Origin: Candidatus Anderseniibacteriota bacterium
Lineage (GTDB): Bacteria; Patescibacteriota; Andersenbacteria; UBA10190
Direction of reading: 5' to 3'
NCBI GenBank assembly: GCA_021414205.1
Contig: JAIOOW010000003.1
Coordinates: forward strand, 364,365-428,364
DNA length: 64,000 nucleotides
Position 1 is the stretch's first letter. Each line of letters begins with the position of its first letter. The position numbers and the translations under genes are program-made. Below the pieces are notes generated by a model that had not been told where the DNA came from, did not search any database, and saw only the letters and a program-made list of their open reading frames with translations. Of the stretch, positions 5,051 to 39,162 are shown piece after piece.

Positions 5051-6109
5051 CTATTTAATTTTCGATCCATGAACGCTTGGCAAGAGCACTTCTTGTACTG
5101 CCTCAATATCTTCTAATACTATACCAGTCCCGCGCACGACTGCAGTAAGCGGATCGTCTGTAATGTGGGTCCTAATCTGGGTGGCATCTGTAATAACGTC
5201 CGCCAGGCCTCGTAGGAGCGCTCCCCCGCCTGCTAAATAAATACCCTGTTCGATAATATCAGACAATAATTCTGGTGGAGTTTCTTCAATACATGCCTTT
5301 ACCGCATCAACGATAATGGAGATGGAACGCTGCATCGCCTCTTTTGCCTGCATGCCGTTCATGATCACTTCTTTCGGAAGGCCAGTTACAAGATCTCGTC
5401 CGCGTATCGGAGCTTCGAGAATTTCCATCGTATCCATTGCAGACCCGATGCGAATTTTGATTTCTTCGGCAGTTCGTTCTCCGATTAACATATTAAAATT
5501 ATTGCGCGCGTATTGGATAATATTTTCGTTCAATTCGTCTCCGGCGATGCGCAATGTCCTATTTGCAACGATTCCCCCAAGTGAAATAACGGAAATCTCG
5601 CTCGTTCCTCCGCCGATATCGACGATGATATTTCCCGTAGCCTCATGAATCGGCAGTCGGGATCCGATGGCAGCTGCCATAGACTCTTCAATTAAAAACA
5701 CGGCTCGAGCCCCGGCACGCAAGCTCGCCTCTTCAACGGCACGTCGCTCTACTTCCGTTACTGATGATGGGATACCAATAACAACTCGCGGTCGTGGTAA
5801 AAAGTGGAATCCGTCTTCATGCACTTTTTGAATAAAATACGAAAGCATTTGCTCTGTTACTTCAAAATCAGAGATAACCCCGTGTCGCAATGGTCTGATC
5901 GCTACAATGTGCGAAGGCGTTTTACCAACCATGCGCTGCGCTTCTTTTCCAATAGCGAGCACCTCGTTTGTTTTTTTGTTCAGCGCAACGACGGAAGGTT
6001 CGTTAATAACAACGCCCTTTCCGCGCACGTATACGAGCGTGTTTGCCGTCCCCAAGTCAATTCCGATGTCTTGCGAGAATCGGCCAAAAAAGTTATTAAC
6101 AAATCCCAT
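5051..6109 (-). CDS. mreB: rod shape-determining protein MreB (actin homologue)
   Basis: 352 aa with actin-fold phosphate-binding motifs (IGIDLGTANT, DIGGGTS, YLAGGGA). Confidence 0.92.
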   Translation of the reverse strand: MGFVNNFFGRFSQDIGIDLGTANTLVYVRGKGVVINEPSVVALNKKTNEVLAIGKEAQRMVGKTPSHIVAIRPLRHGVISDFEVTEQMLSYFIQKVHEDGFHFLPRPRVVIGIPSSVTEVERRAVEEASLRAGARAVFLIEESMAAAIGSRLPIHEATGNIIVDIGGGTSEISVISLGGIVANRTLRIAGDELNENIIQYARNNFNMLIGERTAEEIKIRIGSAMDTMEILEAPIRGRDLVTGLPKEVIMNGMQAKEAMQRSISIIVDAVKACIEETPPELLSDIIEQGIYLAGGGALLRGLADVITDATQIRTHITDDPLTAVVRGTGIVLEDIEAVQEVLLPSVHGSKIK

Positions 6110-6116
6110 ACCAGTA

Positions 6117-7346
6117 TTATCCTTTCAGCCGTTCGATGCAGGCAGCAATATCTACCAATGACGTTTCTGCTTCCGTTCTGCTTTTTACCTCAACTTGGTC
6201 ACCCGTTTTTTTAGAAACAACTACGCGATATGGAATTCCTAATAAATCAGCATCTGAAAACTTTGCTCCGGGAGCAATATCTCTATCGTCATACAGAACC
6301 TCTATTCCCGATGTTTTAAGGGCAGTATATATTTCATCCGCTTTTCTCACCGTATCTTCATCGTCGCGATTTAGACCTGCTAAATACACAGTAAACGGCG
6401 CAATGCTTTTCGGCCAAATAATTCCCTTGTCATCATGGAATTTTTCTACGATGACGCCCATGAGGCGCGTAGTTCCAATTCCGTAGCTGCCCATGTATAC
6501 CAATTGCGGTTTTCCATTTTCATCCATATACGTGTAATTGAATGCGTTTGAAAACTTGATATTGAGCGGGAAGATATTTCCTACTTCGCTTGCCTTGTGC
6601 TTTTCATATGTCTTTCCTTCAGGCGCAATTTCTTCATTGTACGCAATTCCCGTTTCAGTATCGATACAAATAATATCCTCGCCCGCATCGCAAATAGTCT
6701 GAAATTCATGAGAGAACCCGGTAGTGAAATCTCCTCCCGATGCAAGAGTTATTTTAGTATCTTCTCCTAAGCCAACGCGTTCAAAAATGGTGGTGTATGC
6801 TTTTTTAACTTGCTCGTAATAAGTAAGCAGGTCGTCCTCGTCTTTGTGGAAGCTATACAAATCTTTCATGCGGAATTCCCGTCCACGCATAAGGCCTGAC
6901 TTTGCGCGTTCTTCGTTTCTGAATTTTGTTTGAATTTGATATACGGCAAATGGAAAATCTTTGTAACTCGATTTAGATTTTTGCGCAATCGGAGTAACGA
7001 GTTCTTCGTGGGTGCAGTTTAAAATGTACGATGCATCGTTGCGCTTGCGAGACGCGTCATTTGCCCCTCGAGCTTCGAGCAGTACGTCAATTTCTGTTCG
7101 CTTGGTTGTTTCCCAAAGCGATCGCGGAGAGAGCGCGGGCATGAGCATTTCCGTTCCGATAGTATCCATTTCCTCTCGGACAATAGCTTCTATTTTATTG
7201 AGTACGCGAAGACCAATGGGTAGCATGGTGTATACACCCGACATCGTCTGGTCGATGAATCCCCCTTTTTGCAGAAGTGTTGCGTTTATGGAATCAAATT
7301 CTTTTGCATCCTTATTTGTGTGAAGAAAAAACGAAGAGTATCTCAT
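6117..7346 (-). CDS. proS: prolyl-tRNA synthetase, short form lacking the INS editing insertion
   Basis: 409 aa with a class II core (FRNEERAKSGLMRGREFRMKD; GSYGIGTTRL) and a C-terminal anticodon-binding domain. There is no insertion domain between motifs 2 and 3. Confidence 0.85.
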   Translation of the reverse strand: MRYSSFFLHTNKDAKEFDSINATLLQKGGFIDQTMSGVYTMLPIGLRVLNKIEAIVREEMDTIGTEMLMPALSPRSLWETTKRTEIDVLLEARGANDASRKRNDASYILNCTHEELVTPIAQKSKSSYKDFPFAVYQIQTKFRNEERAKSGLMRGREFRMKDLYSFHKDEDDLLTYYEQVKKAYTTIFERVGLGEDTKITLASGGDFTTGFSHEFQTICDAGEDIICIDTETGIAYNEEIAPEGKTYEKHKASEVGNIFPLNIKFSNAFNYTYMDENGKPQLVYMGSYGIGTTRLMGVIVEKFHDDKGIIWPKSIAPFTVYLAGLNRDDEDTVRKADEIYTALKTSGIEVLYDDRDIAPGAKFSDADLLGIPYRVVVSKKTGDQVEVKSRTEAETSLVDIAACIERLKG

Positions 7347-7349
7347 AGA

Positions 7350-8438
7350 TTAAAAGTAATGATGAATATCTTTAAATGTTATAAATAGCATGAGTGCAAT
7401 TAACGCGATAAATCCTATAGTATGGGCGTATTGTTCAACGGAAGCAGTTCGTTTTCTGCCGACTAATTTTTCAATTCCTACAAACAGGATTCTCCCGCCA
7501 TCTAATGCAGGAATTGGCAGAATATTAATAATTGCCAAGTTAATACTGATCATCGCCGCAAACTCTAAGAAGTACGATAATCCCATTGCAACGGCCTGCT
7601 TTGTGTAAATTGCAATTCCGATCGGGCCGGTGAGTGCCTGGCCTACGGATTGATGTTCGAATAATTTCGCAATCAAGATTCCGAATTGGGAAAGTATTGT
7701 CCATGCCATAATGCCCGTTCGTTCAATGCCTTTAATTGGCGCTAGATAGATTGGGGATTTTTCTAATCCTGTTTCGCTCAGGCTAATCCCGAGCGCGCCT
7801 TGTCCTTCGGGAGGATTTACTCGAGGTGTTACGGTAACAGAAAGATCTTGGCCATTTCTATCTAGTTGCATCTGTATTTGCTTGCCCGCGTTGTCTCGTG
7901 TTATTTGCTGTACTGTAGTCAACGACGGGGCTTGGACATTGTTAATGCTTACAATTCGGTCATATACTTGCATACCCGCTTGCTGTGCGGGAGAATCTTT
8001 TGCAACTTCAACGGTATATGTTTTTTTATCGGTGAGCGTGCTCGCATTTTTTTCTGTTACCAACGTTGGCGCGCCGATTGCGCTTTCAACAGAAAGCAAT
8101 ACGACCGCAAACAGCAGGTTCATAATGACTCCTGCGGACAATATTGCAATTCTCCACCAAGCCGACTTGCTTGCGAAGCTGGTTTGCGATGGTTTTTCAC
8201 CATCTGGTAATTCTTCCATATTTTCCCCTTCTATCTTTACAAACCCGCCAATCGGGAAAAGATTAAGAGAGTAAAGCGTTCCGCGCCATGTTTTAGACAA
8301 TAGTCTTGGCGGAAATCCGAATCCGAATTCCTCAACTTTGCAACCTGCCTTTTTCGCAACAAAGAAATGTCCCCACTCGTGGACTAATACCAGAACCAGT
8401 AGCATTGCAATAAAAATCAATATAATCCAGATAGACAT
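7350..8438 (-). CDS. rseP: RIP site-2 metalloprotease RseP/M50 family with PDZ domain
   Basis: 362 aa with an HEWGH zinc motif near the N-terminal TM segment, a central PDZ domain, and a C-terminal LDGG motif. Confidence 0.85.
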   Translation of the reverse strand: MSIWIILIFIAMLLVLVLVHEWGHFFVAKKAGCKVEEFGFGFPPRLLSKTWRGTLYSLNLFPIGGFVKIEGENMEELPDGEKPSQTSFASKSAWWRIAILSAGVIMNLLFAVVLLSVESAIGAPTLVTEKNASTLTDKKTYTVEVAKDSPAQQAGMQVYDRIVSINNVQAPSLTTVQQITRDNAGKQIQMQLDRNGQDLSVTVTPRVNPPEGQGALGISLSETGLEKSPIYLAPIKGIERTGIMAWTILSQFGILIAKLFEHQSVGQALTGPIGIAIYTKQAVAMGLSYFLEFAAMISINLAIINILPIPALDGGRILFVGIEKLVGRKRTASVEQYAHTIGFIALIALMLFITFKDIHHYF

Positions 8439-8497
8439 ACCCCTAAGCGTATCTTGCTTTGCCCTCGGGCGCTAGTGGAGTTTTTTGGGCTTTTTGG

Positions 8498-8538
8498 TAT
8501 AAAAATACCCCGGACAGTGTGTCGCCGGGGGTTGTTTT
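8498..8538 (-). terminator. intrinsic terminator downstream of the 8551-9246 gene
   Basis: Stem ccccgg(8507-8512)/ccgggg(8525-8530). On the minus strand it is followed by TATTTTTAT (complement of 8498-8506). Confidence 0.55.
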
Positions 8539-8550
8539 GGTAGCTGGTTG

Positions 8551-9246
8551 TTATGTGCACGCGTGCTTGCGATGATTGCGTGCGTTGCCCCTATCCCTCC
8601 TCTTTCTCTTGCCTCGCCGTGGTCTGATGGCAGCTGGAGCGTGATGAGTGACGGGGCGAAATCGGGCGCAATACTCTACAAGCTTTCTTTCGAGATCTTC
8701 CGTTAGGCCGGAAGACCGCAAAAGATGACCATTCAAAGACTTTCTCCCTCGAGTTAAGAGTTCGAGCAATAGGTCCTCGATATGGAGCACGTTTCTGTGG
8801 TTTCTTATGGATCGCACAAATGCACAGCGAAGAATGTGCTGGAAATGTGGGGATCTTTCGCAAACACCTCGCGTTTCCTGATAAGCGGGGTAACCGAGTA
8901 TCTCGTACATTTTCCCAAGCAGGTCGGGAAAGTTGATACAAGGCAGCCGGCTTTTGTGGTAATCGGCGTGTTCCATAAAAACGGTCATAATTCCAAACAG
9001 TGCTTCAGTGACTCCAACTTTCTTATGTCGCTGAAACGTTGCCAGCTGATTCGAAATGTCGAGCGCGGTTCTTGCCTGTTGAGCAAGACGGATTCGCATA
9101 CAAGCGTCCTTTGGGTTTGAGAAAACGAACAACAATCTACCTACTTGCGGTATATCATATCCACCAGGCTTGTCAATGTATTTTGACAAAAGAAAACCCG
9201 GCCATGAAGGTCGGGTTGTGGAAGTGTGACTGGTGTCGGTTTTCAT
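8551..9246 (-). CDS. hypothetical protein (231 aa), GC-elevated, helical, Arg/Lys-rich C-terminus; contains R-x4-H-type motifs (RSIRNH) of uncertain significance
   Basis: Long ORF followed by its own terminator. No family recognised by eye. Composition is visibly more GC-rich than the flanking rseP and frr. Confidence 0.5.
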   Translation of the reverse strand: MKTDTSHTSTTRPSWPGFLLSKYIDKPGGYDIPQVGRLLFVFSNPKDACMRIRLAQQARTALDISNQLATFQRHKKVGVTEALFGIMTVFMEHADYHKSRLPCINFPDLLGKMYEILGYPAYQETRGVCERSPHFQHILRCAFVRSIRNHRNVLHIEDLLLELLTRGRKSLNGHLLRSSGLTEDLERKLVEYCARFRPVTHHAPAAIRPRRGKRKRRDRGNARNHRKHACT

Positions 9247-9253
9247 ATTGGCA

Positions 9254-9514
9254 TTACGGAATAGTAGTTGGCAGCTTTTTTGTTTGAGCGATAGTCATTG
9301 CGATTATCGCGGCACTGATTTGCCCCTTACAGAAGCGTAATCCATCAAATATGCTGAGCGACCAGAAGAGTGCTCCATCGTCAGTCTGAGCGAGCCAGCG
9401 CGCATCCTTCCTCCCCGTTTGCCTTGGGCCAGCTATTTGAATCATGTAGCCCTCGTTGATTGGGATAAATTCAGGAAAAATTACTACATGGCGACTAGTG
9501 CGTCTCCTCGACAT
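9254..9514 (-). CDS. hypothetical small protein (86 aa), first gene of the two-gene islet
   Basis: ORF ends 8 nt before the start of the 231-aa ORF. GAGGAG lies upstream of its ATG. No recognisable family. Confidence 0.4.
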   Translation of the reverse strand: MSRRRTSRHVVIFPEFIPINEGYMIQIAGPRQTGRKDARWLAQTDDGALFWSLSIFDGLRFCKGQISAAIIAMTIAQTKKLPTTIP

Positions 9515-9564
9515 GTTTTACTCCTCGGGAAAAGATCAAATAGTATCCGTCTTTCTGCGACAGT

Positions 9565-9596
9565 AAAAAAATACTTTATATAAGATTATTTGTCAA
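9565..9596 (-). promoter_or_regulatory. candidate sigma70-type promoter (TTGACA-17-TATTTT) for the 9514-8551 two-gene islet
   Basis: The reverse complement of 9591-9596 is TTGACA and overlaps the frr stop codon. After a 17-nt spacer comes tatttt, with GAGGAG-taa-ATG downstream. Confidence 0.3.
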
Positions 9597-10153
9597 ATCG
9601 TTTTAATTTCCTGCTCTTTAGAATCGATAGTTTTTTGGAGTTCGTCTTGAGCCTTCCCAATCAGTTCATCGAGATACTTTTTTCCTCCATAAAAATCGTC
9701 TTCAGACATTCTCCCAGCCTCTTTTTCTTGTTTCAAAAACTTTAAGGCTTCGTCTCTCCCCTTTCGCATGCGGATACGCGTTTCTTCTGCTTTAGCATGT
9801 AGGGTTTTTATAGTCTGCAAGCGAACTTCTTCTGTCAATGACTGGAATGAAAGTCGCAGTACTGCACCGTCTATCGTCGGCATCACGCCAACGTTCGCTT
9901 CTATAATCGCCTTTTCGATTGCGGGAATGGTGCTTTTATCCCATGGAGAAACAACAAGCGTTCGGGCGTCCATATTTGAAACGCTCGCGACGGCTTTAAT
10001 AGGGTTTCGGGCTCCGTATACTTCAACGGAAATATCTTCAATAATGGCTGGCTTTACTCTGCCAGAGCGAAGCCCTGCTATTTCGCTTTGAAACCAATTA
10101 AATGCTTCATCTTGGGATTCTTTAAATATTGTTTCTGCTTTGGGTATAGACAT
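9593..10153 (-). CDS. frr: ribosome recycling factor
   Basis: RRF family by sequence (…AGLRSGRVKPAIIEDISVEVYG…). I place the start at the internal Met (MSIPKAE), 2 nt after the holB stop; the track ORF extends to 10195. Confidence 0.85.
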   Translation of the reverse strand: MSIPKAETIFKESQDEAFNWFQSEIAGLRSGRVKPAIIEDISVEVYGARNPIKAVASVSNMDARTLVVSPWDKSTIPAIEKAIIEANVGVMPTIDGAVLRLSFQSLTEEVRLQTIKTLHAKAEETRIRMRKGRDEALKFLKQEKEAGRMSEDDFYGGKKYLDELIGKAQDELQKTIDSKEQEIKTI

Positions 10154-10157
10154 AGTG

Positions 10158-10877
10158 TTACTGTACAGTATTTCGTAATTCGGTAAGAGACGCAAGGAGG
10201 ATATCGGAAGCCAGTTTTATATTCCCTCCCGGAATGCTTGCTGTTTTGTAGTATTCTTTTAATCTTGTGGCCATTTTTGCTAATTGCATGTTTGAACCGT
10301 ATTGCATCGCATATGCATGCAGTATGCGTTCTATGTCTCGCAATTCTTCATCGGTATATGGCCCAGTTGGCCGTATGGCGGAATATGTTGTAAGCAGCTG
10401 GAGTATATCTATAGGTTCCGCCTTCACTTCCTCTTCATCGCTTAATGCGAGAACTATGCATCGCGATTTGATTGTCGTAAGTACACTCCGCTTTGCGGGA
10501 GAACCCAGTAAAAATCTGGTGGAGACTGCAGATTCTTCGAGCGTTTTCAGTAGCATGTTTGCAGACTCCGGAAGCAGTTGTTCTGCTTGCGGAATACACA
10601 CGATTCGTTTGCCTGAAGTTGGTCTTGAGGAAATAGTTGCTTTAAATGCTTTAATGTCTTTTACGGATATCGTTTTCTTTCCGTCTTCAGCGCGAATCAT
10701 GATCGCATCAGGATGATTGCCGACAGCAGATTGCTTGCCCGGCAATGCATGGGCAATTGCGAATGCGCACAGCTCCTCTAGCTGTTCTTGATTATGGGAA
10801 ATAGCCAGGATCGGCTGTTCTGCGTACGTTGAATCAATCCAAGAACGTATCTGCGTACGAACGCTATCTGGAATCAT
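10158..10877 (-). CDS. holB: DNA polymerase III delta-prime subunit (short form)
   Basis: 239 aa with an AAA+-like clamp-loader fold, LLKTLEE(S) box and TIKSRC sensor motif. Confidence 0.7.
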   Translation of the reverse strand: MIPDSVRTQIRSWIDSTYAEQPILAISHNQEQLEELCAFAIAHALPGKQSAVGNHPDAIMIRAEDGKKTISVKDIKAFKATISSRPTSGKRIVCIPQAEQLLPESANMLLKTLEESAVSTRFLLGSPAKRSVLTTIKSRCIVLALSDEEEVKAEPIDILQLLTTYSAIRPTGPYTDEELRDIERILHAYAMQYGSNMQLAKMATRLKEYYKTASIPGGNIKLASDILLASLTELRNTVQ

Positions 10878-11746
10878 TTTCGCTTTGAAATGTAGTACAG
10901 GAGCGGCGGTGCTACGAAGATAGATGAATATGCTCCCGTGATAATGCCGATAATAAGCGCTACTACGAACCAGCGAATGGACGATCCTCCGAAAATTAAT
11001 ACAGCAGTCAACGAGAGTAGTGTTGTAAGCGATGTGTTAATGGATCGTCCCATTGTTAGAATGAGCGCGCGGTCTATTACTTCTAAGAAGCTCTTGCCTC
11101 GTGATGCCATCCATTCCGATCGCAATCTGTCGAATATGACAATCGTATCGTTTACGGAATATCCCAAGATGGCAAGCTGAGCGGTAATAAATAGCGTATC
11201 AATTTCTGCTCCCCACAATTTACCAAACACTACGAAGAATGCCGTTACCAAGAACAGGTCATGAACTAATGCGTAGATAGCTGCCACGCCGAATTTCCAT
11301 GGAGCAAGGAGTCCGCTCGCGTTTCTGAACGTGTATGCCAAGTAGATAATCATTACTACGAGCACGATGACGATAGCGTTTGTTGATTTGGATCGAAGTT
11401 CTTTTCCGATTGTCGGACCGATTTGCTCGAATGCAATTTCCTTACCCGTCATAATTTTTGCATCTTGCAACGTGGTAATAATTTTCGTATGAGTTGCATC
11501 ATCGATAGACGGAGTTTTAATTCGAATGGTTCCATCTTGCGTACCCTCCGCCTGCGCTTCGATATGGAATTGATTTGCTAGGAGCTGCTTCACCTCATCT
11601 GATTTTTCAGGATTAGCCTGGATTTCTATGGATGATCCGCCGGTAAAGTCAATGCCGAAGTTGGGCTTGATGGCGAAAATGAGAATCGTACTGACGATAA
11701 TTGTCGTTACTGATATAGTCATCCAGATTTTAGGATTCTTCATCAT
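10874..11746 (-). CDS. secF: protein translocase subunit SecF
   Basis: 290 aa with 6 TM segments and the SecD/SecF C-terminal motif. It lies downstream of secD with a 3-nt gap. Confidence 0.85.
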   Translation of the reverse strand: MMKNPKIWMTISVTTIIVSTILIFAIKPNFGIDFTGGSSIEIQANPEKSDEVKQLLANQFHIEAQAEGTQDGTIRIKTPSIDDATHTKIITTLQDAKIMTGKEIAFEQIGPTIGKELRSKSTNAIVIVLVVMIIYLAYTFRNASGLLAPWKFGVAAIYALVHDLFLVTAFFVVFGKLWGAEIDTLFITAQLAILGYSVNDTIVIFDRLRSEWMASRGKSFLEVIDRALILTMGRSINTSLTTLLSLTAVLIFGGSSIRWFVVALIIGIITGAYSSIFVAPPLLYYISKRK

Positions 11747-33574: not shown

Positions 33575-35488
33575 CTATATCTTTGGCGGTCGTGGCGGTG
33601 TGTAGTTTTGGATGTCGTCTATTTTTGATGGCGTGATCGGAGGAAGTGAATTCTTGGGCGAAGCTTGCTCTCGGGAATCAATCTTCGGCTTATTTGCATC
33701 AAGCAGCTTAGCGCGTTTGCGCTCGTCGTAACATTCTTTACAGAACACTTCTTTTTCCGGGTCCGGTTTGAACGGAACTTCCGTATGCTTTCCGCAATTA
33801 GAACAAGTAGCCGGATATAGTTTTACTGAGGGTTTATGCTTTTCTTCTGAATGCGTGCGCGTGTTGTTAGGTGGTACGGCAGGTGAAGTTGGGGCATCGT
33901 CAGTAGCATCGTCGCTCGTATCCTCTTTTCTGCCTAACAGTGCTGAGAGATCCGTAATCATTTCTTGTTTTGCAGGGGCGATGACAATATCTTCCAATTC
34001 ATCCGGTTTTTCTTGAACTGGTGTGAATGCTTTTTTATCTACGTGCTCTTGTCGCGGTTTATTTTCTTGCTTTGTTGGTGTTTGAGTGTTTGGAACATTT
34101 GATGCAGGTCGATTAGGTGTTTGTCGCGATTGAGATTGATTATTTTGCGGTTGCCCTTGCTTGCCAAGAAAAATTTGCGGCTTAGGGGACTGTTCCCCGT
34201 TTTCTTGAGCTCCTAAGGTTGAGCTGCTCCATCGTGCAATTTTTTCCTCGATTTCTTTTCGAGGCGATCCGTATCGTTCTCTCGAAACGCGTAATACTTT
34301 TTCTTTACTATTATATGTTTCTGCTACTGGTGCAATCGTTTCCATAGAGAACGGAGCGCTCGTAGCGCCTTTTATCATGAGTTTGATATACGCATTATAT
34401 TTATCCAAGTTCACTAAATCCGTTTGGGTAAAGTACGGCATAAATTCTTTTTCGAGATATTCCGCATCGAATGCACCCACGCGGAACGAGATTATTGTTC
34501 CTACGTTTCCGAATACGGCATCACGCACCACCTCTTCCATCTGCGTAATGTATTGATGAGCGATTATTAAATTGAGGCGATACTTTCGAGCCTCGGAAAG
34601 AATTGTTGCGAATGATTCGGTAGCGAAATTTTGAAATTCGTCGACGTATAGATAGAAGTCTCGTCGCTGCGCTTCCGGAATACTTGCGCGATCCATGGCT
34701 GCAAGTTGGAGCTTGGTAATAAGCATGGCGCCGAGCAAAGCGGAGTTATCTTCTCCGATACGTCCTTTTGAAACGTTAATAAGAAGAATTTTCCCGTTAT
34801 CCATAATATCCTTCATGTCGATCGTGCTTTTCGGTTGTGCGACGATATTGCGGATAATGGACGAACTTAAGAATTGCCCGACTTTGTTTTGGATCGGAGA
34901 AATTGCCTCGCTTCTGAATCGTTCGTTGTAATTGGCGAATTCGTTTACCCAAAAAGCTTTTACTACTGGGTCCGTGATTGTTTCTACCACTTTTGAGCGA
35001 TAGCTTTTATCCGCAAGCATGCGCATGATGCCAAGCATTGTTGAGGACGGGTAATCAAGAAGAGCTAAAATAACATTTCGGAGAATGTATTCCAATCGCG
35101 GCCCCCAAGAATCTGCCCAGATTTTTTTCAGCGAGCTTACTAGCCCTGATGCTACTAAGTATTTATATTGCGGATCAACGGATTCGAGCGGATTAAATGC
35201 AACAGGAAAATCCACATCCGCGGGGTCAAAGTACACAACGTCATTAATGCGTTCCGGTGGAATGATATCCAAAATCTTTTCAGCAACGTCTCCGTGAGGG
35301 TCTACAAGCGCAAGGCCGCGCCCAAGCTTAACGTCCTGAATAATCATATTTTCGAGCAACGTCGTTTTGCCCACGCCCGTTTTTCCAATTACATATACGT
35401 GGCGCCTGCGATCATCGGTATAAATACCAAATGGTTTTCGTTGATGACGAAAGTTCGTTTGTCCTACTACGGTAATTTCATCAAGCAT
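33575..35488 (-). CDS. DUF87/HerA-FtsK-superfamily P-loop ATPase (type IV coupling-protein-like) with low-complexity linker and C-terminal C4 zinc ribbon
   Basis: Walker A GKTGVGKTT is followed by the DUF87-typical LVDPHGD. The Walker B motif is LYVDEFQNF. The C-terminal ~200 aa are Pro/Gln/Asn/Lys-rich and end in CSNCGKH…x17…CKECY. I place the start at the internal Met, overlapping the upstream gene by 8 nt. Confidence 0.7.
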   Translation of the reverse strand: MLDEITVVGQTNFRHQRKPFGIYTDDRRRHVYVIGKTGVGKTTLLENMIIQDVKLGRGLALVDPHGDVAEKILDIIPPERINDVVYFDPADVDFPVAFNPLESVDPQYKYLVASGLVSSLKKIWADSWGPRLEYILRNVILALLDYPSSTMLGIMRMLADKSYRSKVVETITDPVVKAFWVNEFANYNERFRSEAISPIQNKVGQFLSSSIIRNIVAQPKSTIDMKDIMDNGKILLINVSKGRIGEDNSALLGAMLITKLQLAAMDRASIPEAQRRDFYLYVDEFQNFATESFATILSEARKYRLNLIIAHQYITQMEEVVRDAVFGNVGTIISFRVGAFDAEYLEKEFMPYFTQTDLVNLDKYNAYIKLMIKGATSAPFSMETIAPVAETYNSKEKVLRVSRERYGSPRKEIEEKIARWSSSTLGAQENGEQSPKPQIFLGKQGQPQNNQSQSRQTPNRPASNVPNTQTPTKQENKPRQEHVDKKAFTPVQEKPDELEDIVIAPAKQEMITDLSALLGRKEDTSDDATDDAPTSPAVPPNNTRTHSEEKHKPSVKLYPATCSNCGKHTEVPFKPDPEKEVFCKECYDERKRAKLLDANKPKIDSREQASPKNSLPPITPSKIDDIQNYTPPRPPKI

Positions 35489-36776
35489 ATGGAAGGTTTG
35501 CAGGAGGGTTTTTATGACCAGCCTTTGCCCGATCAACTCCAGGGGTTGTTACATACTTCACTGGGAAATGGTATATGGTTGCCAGCTCTTCAGCATTCAT
35601 AATCTGTCCGGAATCTGTTCCAAAAAAATCCCGCCACTGAAAATTCAGCAAAGCATTGCGTTCTTTTAACCATCTGCGCCGATCTTTCATGAAAAATCCA
35701 GGACCGTTCGTCTTTGTTTCTTTGTCTGGTGAGAAAGAGTTTAAATGCGCTGCCGTAAATTGCTTGAATACGCCGAATCCGCGAGAAATATTTGGCTTTT
35801 TTAATTGTCCTACCGGTGCAATATGCACGACGCGTACTTTCGTTTTGTATCCGTTGCTGGAAATTTTTTGTAAAATAGACTTCATTTTTGCGTCATCGAC
35901 AGGATTGAAGAAGCGAAGAACTTTCTCTTCTTTTTTTGTTTCTATCTCAATAGGACCCTTAAACACTGCTTGAAAGAATTCGCTCGGAAGCGCGGAGATG
36001 AATTCTTTTGCGTTGTCCCACATACCCGGCTTTGGTTTTGAAGCTTGTCCTGAAATTTCTGCAATTTTTTTCTCTCCTCTTTTCTCCCACTTTTTAATAT
36101 CGCTTCCGGAGATGGGGCGAACAAGCACCTGGACCCAGAATTCCTCGCCTGGCTCCACGTTTGTGAGTGTTTCCAAAATGATCTGCATCGGATCAACAAA
36201 CGGAATATTTTCCGCTAAGCTTGCTTCGAATTCCTTGTATGTCTTTATAGGAAGGATGTCATCCTCCGTAAGAATAATATCGGCTCCCCACATCTCGAAT
36301 TTAGTTCGCAAATCCTCAACATTATATCGCTGAGTATAATCTTCTACTTCCTGGATATCTGCCTTTGGGTATTGCGCGTATATAATTGCCTCAAATAATC
36401 GTCTATGTGCGGTTGGTATAACGATAATAAACTTTGCTGATTGTTGGGTGCAGTATATCTCGAAGCTGGCCCATGCTTCTAGATATCCGTCAAAATATTT
36501 TTCGTTGATATCGGGGCCCTTGTGTATGCCTCCCATAACTTCAAAGATAACTTCCATAGAGCGAGGCGTTTCCTCCGTTTCTTCGGGGAGAGTGATTTGG
36601 TAGAATGTCCATTCGATGGCGCTCACATAGTCCACCATTTTTAGGAGGAGATATGTTTTCCATGCGATCCACATAACCATCCAGACCACAAGAAGCCATC
36701 CGAATGTGAGGATAGTCGGCCCAAATTGCTGAGCAAAATCAGAGAAGGTGTACTCCATTCCCCTATTGTACTGCAA
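35481..36776 (-). CDS. hypothetical membrane protein (2 N-terminal TM helices plus ~370-aa soluble domain), translationally coupled partner of the DUF87 ATPase
   Basis: 431 aa with an N-terminal hairpin TM (…ILTFGWLLVVWMVMWIAW…). No family recognised. Confidence 0.55.
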   Translation of the reverse strand: MQYNRGMEYTFSDFAQQFGPTILTFGWLLVVWMVMWIAWKTYLLLKMVDYVSAIEWTFYQITLPEETEETPRSMEVIFEVMGGIHKGPDINEKYFDGYLEAWASFEIYCTQQSAKFIIVIPTAHRRLFEAIIYAQYPKADIQEVEDYTQRYNVEDLRTKFEMWGADIILTEDDILPIKTYKEFEASLAENIPFVDPMQIILETLTNVEPGEEFWVQVLVRPISGSDIKKWEKRGEKKIAEISGQASKPKPGMWDNAKEFISALPSEFFQAVFKGPIEIETKKEEKVLRFFNPVDDAKMKSILQKISSNGYKTKVRVVHIAPVGQLKKPNISRGFGVFKQFTAAHLNSFSPDKETKTNGPGFFMKDRRRWLKERNALLNFQWRDFFGTDSGQIMNAEELATIYHFPVKYVTTPGVDRAKAGHKNPPANLPYA

Positions 36777-37811: not shown

Positions 37812-37917
37812 ATATACCTTTTTAGCATATCATGTAAATATTGTCAATATAGCACTAACAACTTATGACTATACTACGTATTATTTGATATGTCTAGTAT
37901 GGCAAAGTTGGATACTG
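37812..37917. promoter_or_regulatory. promoter/operator region upstream of the sigma-r4/HARE gene with two TTGACA-containing palindromes
   Basis: tgtcaacttttcttgaca (TGTCAA-N6-TTGACA) lies at ~37907-37924 and atattgtcaatat at ~37842-37854. The minus strand reads TTGACA-17-TAAAAA followed by aaaggtatatATG. Confidence 0.35.
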
Positions 37918-39162
37918 TCAACTTTTCTTGACAATGGCTCGCATTCTGCCATCGAGCGTACCGGCACTGAAAATAATTGCTATACAAGGCTTTTTTTGAG
38001 CTATTGACTCGGTAAGTTTCGTATCATCGAATATGCATTCTGCGGGCGTATTTTTAGCCTCAATGGCATCCTGTAATCTGTAGGCGTCTTCTAATGACTG
38101 CTCGTCTCGGCCGGTGGGGATAAACGGTTTTGTGATGATTACTTCGTCTGCTTGAGCCAATGCATCGGCGAAATTGTCAAAAAACGTATGAAGTCGCTTC
38201 GGCATATGGGCTTCAAATACCGCAACAATATGTGCTCCTGGCGCAAATTCGCGCGCTCCTTGCAATGTTGCTTGTATTTCTGCGGGATGATGGCCGTAAT
38301 CCGATCGAATTTCAACCTTCCCAACAGTTCCGAGTAGTTCAAATCTGCGCGCTAGCCCTGGGAATGTTGTAAGTGATGTAATTGCCCGTTTTCTGTCTAC
38401 TCCCAATTTTTCTGCCAGCGCAACGGCGAGGCTGGCATTTTGCCGCATGTGTTTGCCTGGCAAAGGAACGCGAAGCTTTTCTTCCTCAGATGTTGGAATG
38501 ATGTGCGTATCTACTGGCCATGAAATATTCATATGCGCACTATGTTCTGTTTCGGGAACAAAAATAGAACCTCCTGGCTTGAGTGATTGCATGAAATGTT
38601 CGTACGATTTCTCCACATCCGCTAATCCGGTAAATGCGTCGGGGTGGTCGTAGTCAATCGATGTAATGATGATGTCGTTCGGCGCGAGTGCGTAAAAGTG
38701 ATTGCGGTATTCATCTGCTTCTACTACGAAATACTTTCCTTTGCCGTATCGTGCATGCTTCCCTGGTAGGCTTGGCATTGAGGCGCCGACTACAACTGTC
38801 GGATCGAGTCCCGCTTCAATGAGAATGTGCGCAAGGAATGCGGTAGTAGATGACTTACCGTGCGTGCCGGTAACAGCAAGCGTGTGATAGTGGCTTGTAA
38901 TATGCCCTAGAAATTCATGATAGGCCGATTCTGTTTTCCCAGTCTTCCTGAATGCGGCGCGCAAAGGATGCTCAAACGGTGCGGCATCCGTATATATGAG
39001 CGATGTAATTTCGGGAAGCTTTTCAAGAACTTCTGCTTGTGTGTATTTCGAAAATTCTGGATTATCGTCATATCCAACAACGGTCATGCCGTCTTGTTCT
39101 GCAAGGTATGCAACTGCGCGCATGCCAGCTCCGCCAATTCCAACAAAAAGTAATGTTTCCAT
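37918..39162 (-). CDS. murC: UDP-N-acetylmuramate--L-alanine ligase
   Basis: 414 aa; Mur ligase N-terminal Rossmann (GIGGAGM), GTHGKSSTT P-loop, and C-terminal domain. Confidence 0.85.
   Translation of the reverse strand: METLLFVGIGGAGMRAVAYLAEQDGMTVVGYDDNPEFSKYTQAEVLEKLPEITSLIYTDAAPFEHPLRAAFRKTGKTESAYHEFLGHITSHYHTLAVTGTHGKSSTTAFLAHILIEAGLDPTVVVGASMPSLPGKHARYGKGKYFVVEADEYRNHFYALAPNDIIITSIDYDHPDAFTGLADVEKSYEHFMQSLKPGGSIFVPETEHSAHMNISWPVDTHIIPTSEEEKLRVPLPGKHMRQNASLAVALAEKLGVDRKRAITSLTTFPGLARRFELLGTVGKVEIRSDYGHHPAEIQATLQGAREFAPGAHIVAVFEAHMPKRLHTFFDNFADALAQADEVIITKPFIPTGRDEQSLEDAYRLQDAIEAKNTPAECIFDDTKLTESIAQKKPCIAIIFSAGTLDGRMRAIVKKS

Follow-up and report, generated by a model that had tools for sequence, protein, structure and literature searches.

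The variable frr–rseP gene slot of Candidatus Andersenbacteria and its main occupant, a putative divergent stand-alone Clp N-terminal domain with a basic tail

The segment between frr and rseP was analysed in a 64,000-nucleotide (nt) stretch of contig JAIOOW010000003.1 (positions 364,365 to 428,364; the whole stretch is referred to as the window), which Frr-based retrieval from species-representative genomes places in Candidatus Andersenbacteria of the Patescibacteria, or candidate phyla radiation (CPR). The minus strand of the window carries a run of housekeeping genes in the order secD, secF, holB, frr, rseP, proS, mreB and mreC, and this run is interrupted between frr and rseP by a gene slot of variable content that is specific to Candidatus Andersenbacteria. 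The slot holds two small genes here, one encoding an 86-amino acid (aa) protein (ORF86) and the other a 182-aa protein, named X, which we assign as a highly diverged stand-alone Clp/Hsp100 N-terminal domain (residues 1–146, eight helices in two four-helix repeats) followed by a basic tail. The two open reading frames described in the original prediction, 9514–9254 and 9246–8551 on the minus strand, are present at these coordinates. For comparison of the slot we used the frr–rseP loci of relatives, which are given L-numbers (L001, L003 and so on), the nearest by Frr identity being L004 (97%), L005 (85%) and L006 (84%). The features of the window locus are as follows.

8441–8478, minus strand: conserved element of ~38 nt before the rseP ATG (CCACTAGCGCC...CAAAGCAAGATACGCTTAGGGGT), the right border of the variable slot
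8501–8530, minus strand: intrinsic terminator of X (CCCCGGCGACACACTGTCCGGGG, then UAUUUUU; −12.7 kcal/mol)
8551–9099, minus strand: assigned coding sequence of X, 182 aa, starting at Met50 of the 231-aa open reading frame 9246–8551
9100–9246, minus strand: 5′ extension of the 231-aa frame, judged non-coding, overlapping a terminator and a promoter
9107–9112, minus strand: AAAGGA ribosome-binding site of X, 7 nt before its predicted true start
9149–9189, minus strand: putative sigma-70-like promoter of X (−35 TTGACA at 9176–9171, 16-nt spacer, TG-n-TATACC with the −10 at 9154–9149)
9188–9217, minus strand: intrinsic terminator after ORF86 (hairpin 9217–9195, then UUUUCUUUU; −11.1 kcal/mol, z = −2.2)
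9254–9514, minus strand: ORF86, an 86-aa basic protein (isoelectric point, pI, 10.5), optional slot occupant
9521–9526, minus strand: GAGGAG ribosome-binding site of ORF86, read from the sequence and also present in L050
9568–9596, minus strand: promoter-like site of ORF86 (−35 TTGACA at 9596–9591, 17-nt spacer, −10 TATTTT)

The second gene had been predicted to encode 231 aa, but its orthologues begin at Met50 of that frame, and the 147 nt upstream are occupied by a terminator and a promoter. Three database relatives of the 231-aa frame were found, one of them the identical sequence and the other two proteins of 182 aa that start at its Met50. All syntenic homologues align from Met50, and each of them, in every allele class, has an AGGA-type ribosome-binding site 7–10 nt upstream. 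The ATG at 9246 has no ribosome-binding site in front of it, the frame upstream of Met50 is broken in L003, and the indels between the window and L050 in the 5′ extension are not multiples of three. The 231-aa model was dropped for the 182-aa model on these grounds, and because the 147 nt before Met50 hold the terminator hairpin and the promoter, the start of X is placed at 9099. X is missing from the NCBI protein set of the source organism, its sole record being a 231-aa Logan gene call; naive calling of reading frames at this locus fuses a terminator and a promoter into the coding sequence.

ORF86 and X appear to form two separate transcription units and not one operon, since they are separated by a terminator and a second promoter. 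This arrangement departs from the original prediction, in which the pair was one unit; the terminator hairpin at 9217–9188 and the promoter at 9176–9149 split the genes. The hairpin of the window is also found in L050, and L003 has a terminator at the equivalent place with a longer hairpin of other sequence (−15.9 kcal/mol, z = −3.5). The −35 TTGACA of X lies within a palindrome, TTGTCAA-N6-TTGACAA (9189–9170), exact palindromes are found upstream of X in L001, L003, L005 and L050, and TTGACA with a 16–18-nt spacer and TATAnn is found in every X-bearing locus. Between the window and L050 the terminator–promoter stretch is 85–90% identical despite the unalignable coding sequence downstream. From this pattern we infer that 9149–9189 acts as the promoter of X. 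The site at 9568–9596 would likewise act as the promoter of ORF86: its −35 overlaps the frr stop codon (9595–9593), a consensus scan gives 10/12 matches, and L050 keeps the same −35, spacing and −10. Downstream of X, the terminator is identical in L050 and is represented by a covarying stem in L001, L004, L005 and L006. Three signals recorded in the original prediction are thereby confirmed, namely the TTGACA element over the frr stop, the GAGGAG before the first ATG (9526–9521, with the ATG at 9514) and the ccccgg...ccgggg terminator with its T-run after the second gene (8530–8501).

With up to two mismatches allowed, the palindrome occurs three times in the window (9170–9189, 1992–2011 and 37915–37934), where 0.42 copies are expected by chance. 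Each copy is positioned where one minus-strand gene ends, upstream of the gene that follows, and the palindrome may serve the organism generally as a promoter or operator motif. A 5′-leader motif (TGTTCGTT..CTCAAA, then an AGGA ribosome-binding site) was observed at 9113–9135 of the window and before X in L001, L003, L005 and L006. The same leader motif precedes an unrelated 128-aa frame of L006 (~5290–5310), which suggests a reusable promoter-leader ‘expression cassette’ that serves genes inserted in the slot.

Both X and ORF86 are real genes under purifying selection. Comparison of X with its 87%-identical L003 homologue gave a ratio of nonsynonymous to synonymous substitution rates (dN/dS) of 0.12 at dS 0.86, with 0.03–0.05 for the Frr and RseP controls, and comparison of ORF86 with its L050 homologue gave 0.17 at dS 1.1, without indels and with 18/14/35 differences at the three codon positions. 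The reading in which these are pseudogenes or spurious frames in a decaying, long intergenic spacer could draw on the few database homologues and on the NCBI record, which lacks X and annotates ORF86 as 63 aa. It is hardly credible, however, given dN/dS of 0.12 and 0.17 at dS ~0.9–1.1 with intact frames, conserved ribosome-binding sites, promoters and terminators, and allele classes that are homologous over their full length.

The spacing of frr and rseP is 20–70 bp in ~20 other Patescibacteria loci retrieved with Frr, whereas the gap is variable in Andersenbacteria, in agreement with the earlier proposal of an accessory insertion in a conserved neighbourhood. A metagenome scan based on frr contributed L053 as the sole new locus (L054 duplicates L005, and L055 duplicates L007). 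The slot contents are as follows.

L053 and L010: slot empty, 87 bp (L053 856–942) and 71 bp (L010 4562–4632)
L001, L004, L005 and L009: X only
L006: X and an unrelated 128-aa open reading frame (L006 5313–5699)
Window and L050: ORF86 and X
L003: a different small open reading frame (C-terminus at L003 1–83) and X
L007: one 84-aa open reading frame (L007 4640–4894) and nothing else

The small frames of L006, L003 and L007 are unrelated and have no family match, and the frr–rseP slot is a place where lineage-specific orphan genes collect. In the empty slot of L053 only a terminator-like remnant and the rseP-upstream element are left. This element is kept in all the Andersenbacteria loci (L001, L003–L007, L009, L010, L050 and L053), empty slots included, and may be the promoter or leader of rseP; an exact DNA pattern search with it in JGI metagenomes found no further alleles. 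The idea of an acquired islet would lose ground if relatives conserved the frames at the same locus, and this is the case in part: an X homologue is found here across the lineage, but the slot is empty in L053 and L010, so that X is dispensable.

Self-BLAST of 9100–9592 detected no repeats or mobile-element remnant, and a scan of IMG/VR with the X subfamily and ORF86 returned no relatives and thus no sign of phage origin. A structured RNA was considered and rejected, as an Rfam scan of 7000–11000 (E ≤ 1) gave only chance-level matches outside the region and no tRNA or tmRNA was found. The claim that the islet is richer in GC than its flanks is upheld by a sliding comparison, at modest size: the region has a GC content of 0.478 against a window mean of 0.445 (standard deviation 0.018), at the 95.6th percentile of equal-length windows. 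The coding sequence of X has a GC content of 0.501 and a third-position GC content (GC3) of 0.503, which exceeds all 36 window reading frames of at least 250 aa (maximum GC3 0.471; z = 2.6–2.8). The spacers of relatives show a like elevation of 1.5–4.7 points, with L009 as the exception. The compositional shift is real yet small, and the region is mildly atypical.

ORF86 has a homologue (P0004) that is 72% identical and in the same position in L050, L051 and L052. The NCBI protein MCE9643558.1, from an Andersenbacteria metagenome-assembled genome and labelled ‘hypothetical protein’, is a 63-aa version of ORF86 that is identical over its 63 residues; it lacks the N-terminal 23 residues, although L050 conserves them. 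No usable match to ORF86 was obtained in Pfam, PADLOC, PHROGs or NCBIfam. The structural model (predicted local distance difference test, pLDDT, 65) contains five predicted strands and a C-terminal helix, and its comparison with known structures gave no meaningful structural neighbour. ORF86 is confined to the window and the L050 group, where the X alleles beside it share 23% identity. A 72%-identical ORF86 next to 23%-identical X alleles fits an independent passenger of the slot and not a cognate partner, and ORF86 is an optional second occupant.

No recognisable family had been noted for either protein, and for X this holds with respect to direct Pfam, PADLOC and NCBIfam scans, but profile and fold comparisons give a Clp N-domain. 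Direct scans fail on the window protein, and the bridge is provided by the syntenic proteins of relatives. The syntenic L009 protein matches Pfam Clp_N at 1.4e-19 with two repeats, and X of L050 has a weak precomputed Clp_N match. When a profile of eight syntenic X proteins, excluding L009, was compared with all PDB sequences, the top 47 matches were all Clp N-domains, and the best of them, Staphylococcus aureus ClpC (7e-9), was collinear across both repeats. The four-member subfamily of the window by itself has the ClpC N-domain 3fes as its top match (E = 0.023, full length), and hhalign connects this subfamily to the other allele classes with a probability of 98.4% and E = 7e-15 over 142 columns.

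An AlphaFold2 model of X, built from a five-sequence alignment, places eight helices within residues 7–146. Every one of its best 50 PDB matches by Foldseek is a Clp/Hsp100 N-domain (ClpC, ClpC1, ClpA, ClpB, ClpD, CLPT4 and Hsp101), with a probability of 1.00 for the first 29 and 0.92–0.99 for the remaining ones, and target-normalised template-modelling (TM) scores are 0.5–0.62 for isolated N-domain structures. With respect to membership of Clp_N, therefore, a match to the family hidden Markov model (HMM) is lacking, homology is found through intermediates and profiles, and the eight-helix double repeat is found in the model (mean pLDDT 51.8). Five positions are invariant over eight alleles (Met1, Ala12, Ser83, Glu108 and Leu115), of which Ser83 and Glu108 align with Thr81 and Glu106 in repeat 2 of ClpC. 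Glu32 and Glu106 are crucial residues of the phospho-arginine pockets of ClpC (PMC12583610). The basic tail of X (residues 147–182, 36 aa) is predicted to be disordered, is rich in Arg and Lys and has a pI of 12; such a tail is present in 6 of the 7 allele classes, while that of L009 is acidic. X contains 14% Arg and 6.6% His.

The X family is tiny, with 5 proteins among 5.8 billion, and an exhaustive profile search of 1.8 billion representatives returned two real relatives and one repetitive false match. As far as the 5.8 billion proteins show, the family appears confined to a handful of Andersenbacteria sequences, and all named database copies are labelled ‘hypothetical’ or ‘uncharacterized’.

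These results bear on the proposal that the two genes form a type II toxin-antitoxin or abortive-infection pair, in which ORF86 would be the antitoxin and the larger protein a HEPN-like RNase toxin. The locus resembles type II toxin-antitoxin and HEPN-MNT modules in that a small gene and a larger one share a strand at an accessory site, and mildly atypical composition, presence/absence variation and the basic character of both proteins are also in keeping with such a module. X and ORF86 differ from these modules in operon coupling, co-occurrence, HEPN fold or motif and defence-family match, none of which is found. Profile and fold indicate a Clp N-domain and not HEPN, and the R-x4-H motifs from which a HEPN-like RNase had been suggested do not bear it out: R-x4-6-H motifs occur in X at chance-level frequency, and none is conserved among the four closest homologues. 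PADLOC, Pfam, PHROGs and NCBIfam give no match to a toxin, antitoxin or defence family. L050 and L003 both keep the terminator and second promoter between the genes, five relatives (L001, L004, L005, L006 and L009) carry X but lack ORF86, and the pairing of ORF86 with strongly diverged X alleles argues against a co-evolving cognate pair. We consider the toxin-antitoxin proposal very improbable.

The most unusual property of the locus is the divergence of X relative to its surroundings. Among the window, L050 and L004, Frr is 95–98% and RseP 93–96% identical (93–98% in all), but X is just 22–27% identical; for L001, which is more distant (Frr 91%, RseP 90%), the identity of X is 43%. Along the window–L050 alignment, DNA identity is 85–90% in frr, ~70–80% in ORF86 and again 85–90% in the terminator–promoter element, drops to ~35–45% (unalignable) exactly where X is encoded and rises again from the terminator of X. 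Window and L004 do not align at all between 9597 and 8484, while their flanks are 89–90% identical. At comparable dS (~0.7–0.9), X is either 87% identical (L003) or ~23% identical (L050), which indicates discrete allele classes and no continuum. As noted above for the hhalign comparison (E = 7e-15), the classes are homologous over their full length. X alleles are not distributed as the phylogeny of the flanking genes would predict, which points to exchange or sorting by recombination rather than divergence in place. The comparison favours replacement or sorting of old X alleles by recombination in conserved regulatory flanks, and we infer that the variable surface of X reflects diversifying or balancing selection.

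X shares with the N-terminal domains of ClpC, ClpA, ClpB, Hsp104 and ClpV (PF02861) the eight-helix pseudo-twofold double repeat, the S/T-P start of repeat 2 (Ser83-Pro84 in X) and the Glu of the ‘xTEHxLLxL’ helix (Glu108-Asp-Leu-Leu-Leu in X). It differs from them in having no AAA+ modules, in the loss of the repeat-1 Thr (Ala6) with the Glu shifted by one position, and in the failure of the Pfam HMM. ClpT1 and ClpT2 of plant plastids and CLPT3/4 of Chlamydomonas are, like X, free-standing Clp N-domain homologues without an ATPase, and CLPT4 (7eko_O) is among both the sequence and the fold matches of X. Plastid ClpT proteins attach to the protease there, at its ClpP/R core. This docking is a ClpT feature, whereas the similarity of X to CLPT4 is at the level of the fold only; to our knowledge, neither a basic tail nor allelic hypervariability has been described for ClpT.

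The second kind of detached Clp N-domain is ClpC2 (Mycobacterium tuberculosis Rv2667 and its actinobacterial orthologues), which like X is small, is not an ATPase and has a homologue of the ClpC N-terminal double repeat at its core. Both have a promoter of their own with a GTCAA...TTGAC-type palindrome, only one of the two phospho-arginine (pArg)-type pockets is retained, and the ClpC2 entries 8ad9 and 9p2p are among the profile matches of X. Mycobacterial ClpC2 binds cyclomarin, rufomycin and phospho-arginine and works as a sponge, and it represses its own promoter at CGTCAAC-n5-GTTGACG sites over the −35/−10, from which it is released by pArg or cyclomarin (PMC10030653, PMC13345244). In ClpC2 an N-terminal four-helix dimerisation domain precedes the Clp-N-like domain (PMC10030653), whereas the appendage of X is a C-terminal disordered basic tail, so that the order is reversed. 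ClpC2 is ~40% identical to the ClpC1 N-domain, while X lies below Pfam detection; ClpC2 is conserved among its orthologues in the Actinomycetota, while X is hypervariable and patescibacterial; and ClpC2 binds DNA and ligand, while X is likened to it from sequence and fold.

By analogy with ClpC2 and ClpT, which are free binding modules, X is probably a detached ligand- or substrate-recognition module of the same type. In this model, the target that free X binds through the repeat-2 pocket and groove would be a peptide, a phospho-arginine-like ligand or a Clp proteostasis partner, and the ligand would thereby be titrated, sensed or redirected, with the basic tail predicted to anchor X to nucleic acid or another polyanion. 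On balance we lean towards this overall reading, in which the slot carries two independent transcription units and its main occupant is a divergent Clp N-domain recognition module with a basic tail. Several points weigh against it. Window X has no match in Pfam or NCBIfam, even at E ≤ 10, and nothing usable in PADLOC or PHROGs; its model is of low confidence (pLDDT 51.8), with TM-scores of just 0.5–0.6; and the repeat-1 pocket residues are not kept, with Ala6 for Thr7 of ClpC and Thr31 at the position of Glu32. The function of X is drawn by analogy, and none of the genes for a Clp ATPase, ClpP or McsB was found among the large reading frames of the 64-kb window, so that the Clp partner of X stays putative. 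In addition, flank dS is already 0.7–0.9, which excludes very fast divergence in place less strictly than a comparison between closer genomes.

The likeness to ClpC2 suggests a further role, in which X binds the palindrome over its own −35, through the tail or by oligomerising, and represses itself until a ligand in the Clp-N pocket releases it. Self-repression by ClpC2, a detached Clp N-domain homologue (PMC10030653, PMC13345244), the resemblance of the conserved GTCAA...TTGAC palindrome in the X promoter to the ClpC2 operator (CGTCAAC-n5-GTTGACG) and the basic tail in 6 of 7 allele classes are consistent with such a circuit. X, however, lacks the N-terminal four-helix dimerisation domain of ClpC2 and starts directly with the Clp-N repeat, the tail of the L009 allele is acidic, and near-copies of the palindrome at two other gene junctions perhaps mark a general promoter feature. 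A near-invariant palindrome paired with X proteins that are 22–27% identical would require a conserved operator to be read by a hypervariable protein. Autoregulation is for these reasons unlikely.

X could instead be a fast-evolving, lineage-specific protein that keeps the Clp-N scaffold for a function unrelated to Clp, such as association with nucleic acid or the ribosome via the Arg/Lys tail. The tail pI of 12, the position near frr and proS (translation and secretion neighbours), the lack of a Clp partner in the 64-kb window, the loss of the repeat-1 pocket residues and the very small size of the family would all suit a protein of this kind. The promoter and terminator of X, however, leave no co-transcription with frr or rseP, X is dispensable, being absent from L053 and L010, and the invariant residues are those of the repeat-2 Clp pocket. 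A Clp-unrelated function is conceivable but doubtful.

Elsewhere in the window, 33575–35536 on the minus strand encodes a 653-aa type IV secretion coupling protein that is VirD4/TraG-like and ends in a treble-clef zinc finger (Pfam zf_Tbcl_2) at its C-terminus.

With the preferred assignment of X as a Clp N-domain, a CPR-specific orphan family acquires a function that can be tested. What is new is a very divergent stand-alone Clp N-domain protein with another kind of appendage, and its population-genetic pattern is unusual. The few free-standing Clp N-domains have come to be understood only recently, ClpC2 being a phospho-arginine/antibiotic sensor and sponge, and the class would become wider with a patescibacterial member that carries a basic tail. 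A coding sequence that cannot be aligned although its promoter and terminator are conserved, together with incongruence with the flanks, marks a recombination-driven polymorphic locus in organisms whose population genetics and conflicts are poorly known. A more speculative extension, to which we give rather little weight, is that the X locus is engaged in an arms race, with X as a free, hypervariable decoy or sensor made of a Clp N-domain in an episymbiotic CPR bacterium. Ancient allele classes would then be kept and swapped by recombination at the conserved promoter and terminator, and X would catch agents directed at Clp N-domains, for example toxic peptides, proteins of phages or effectors of a host. 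If this were true, the locus would be a proteostasis-linked counterpart of polymorphic immunity loci and an unrecognised kind of defence or counter-defence.

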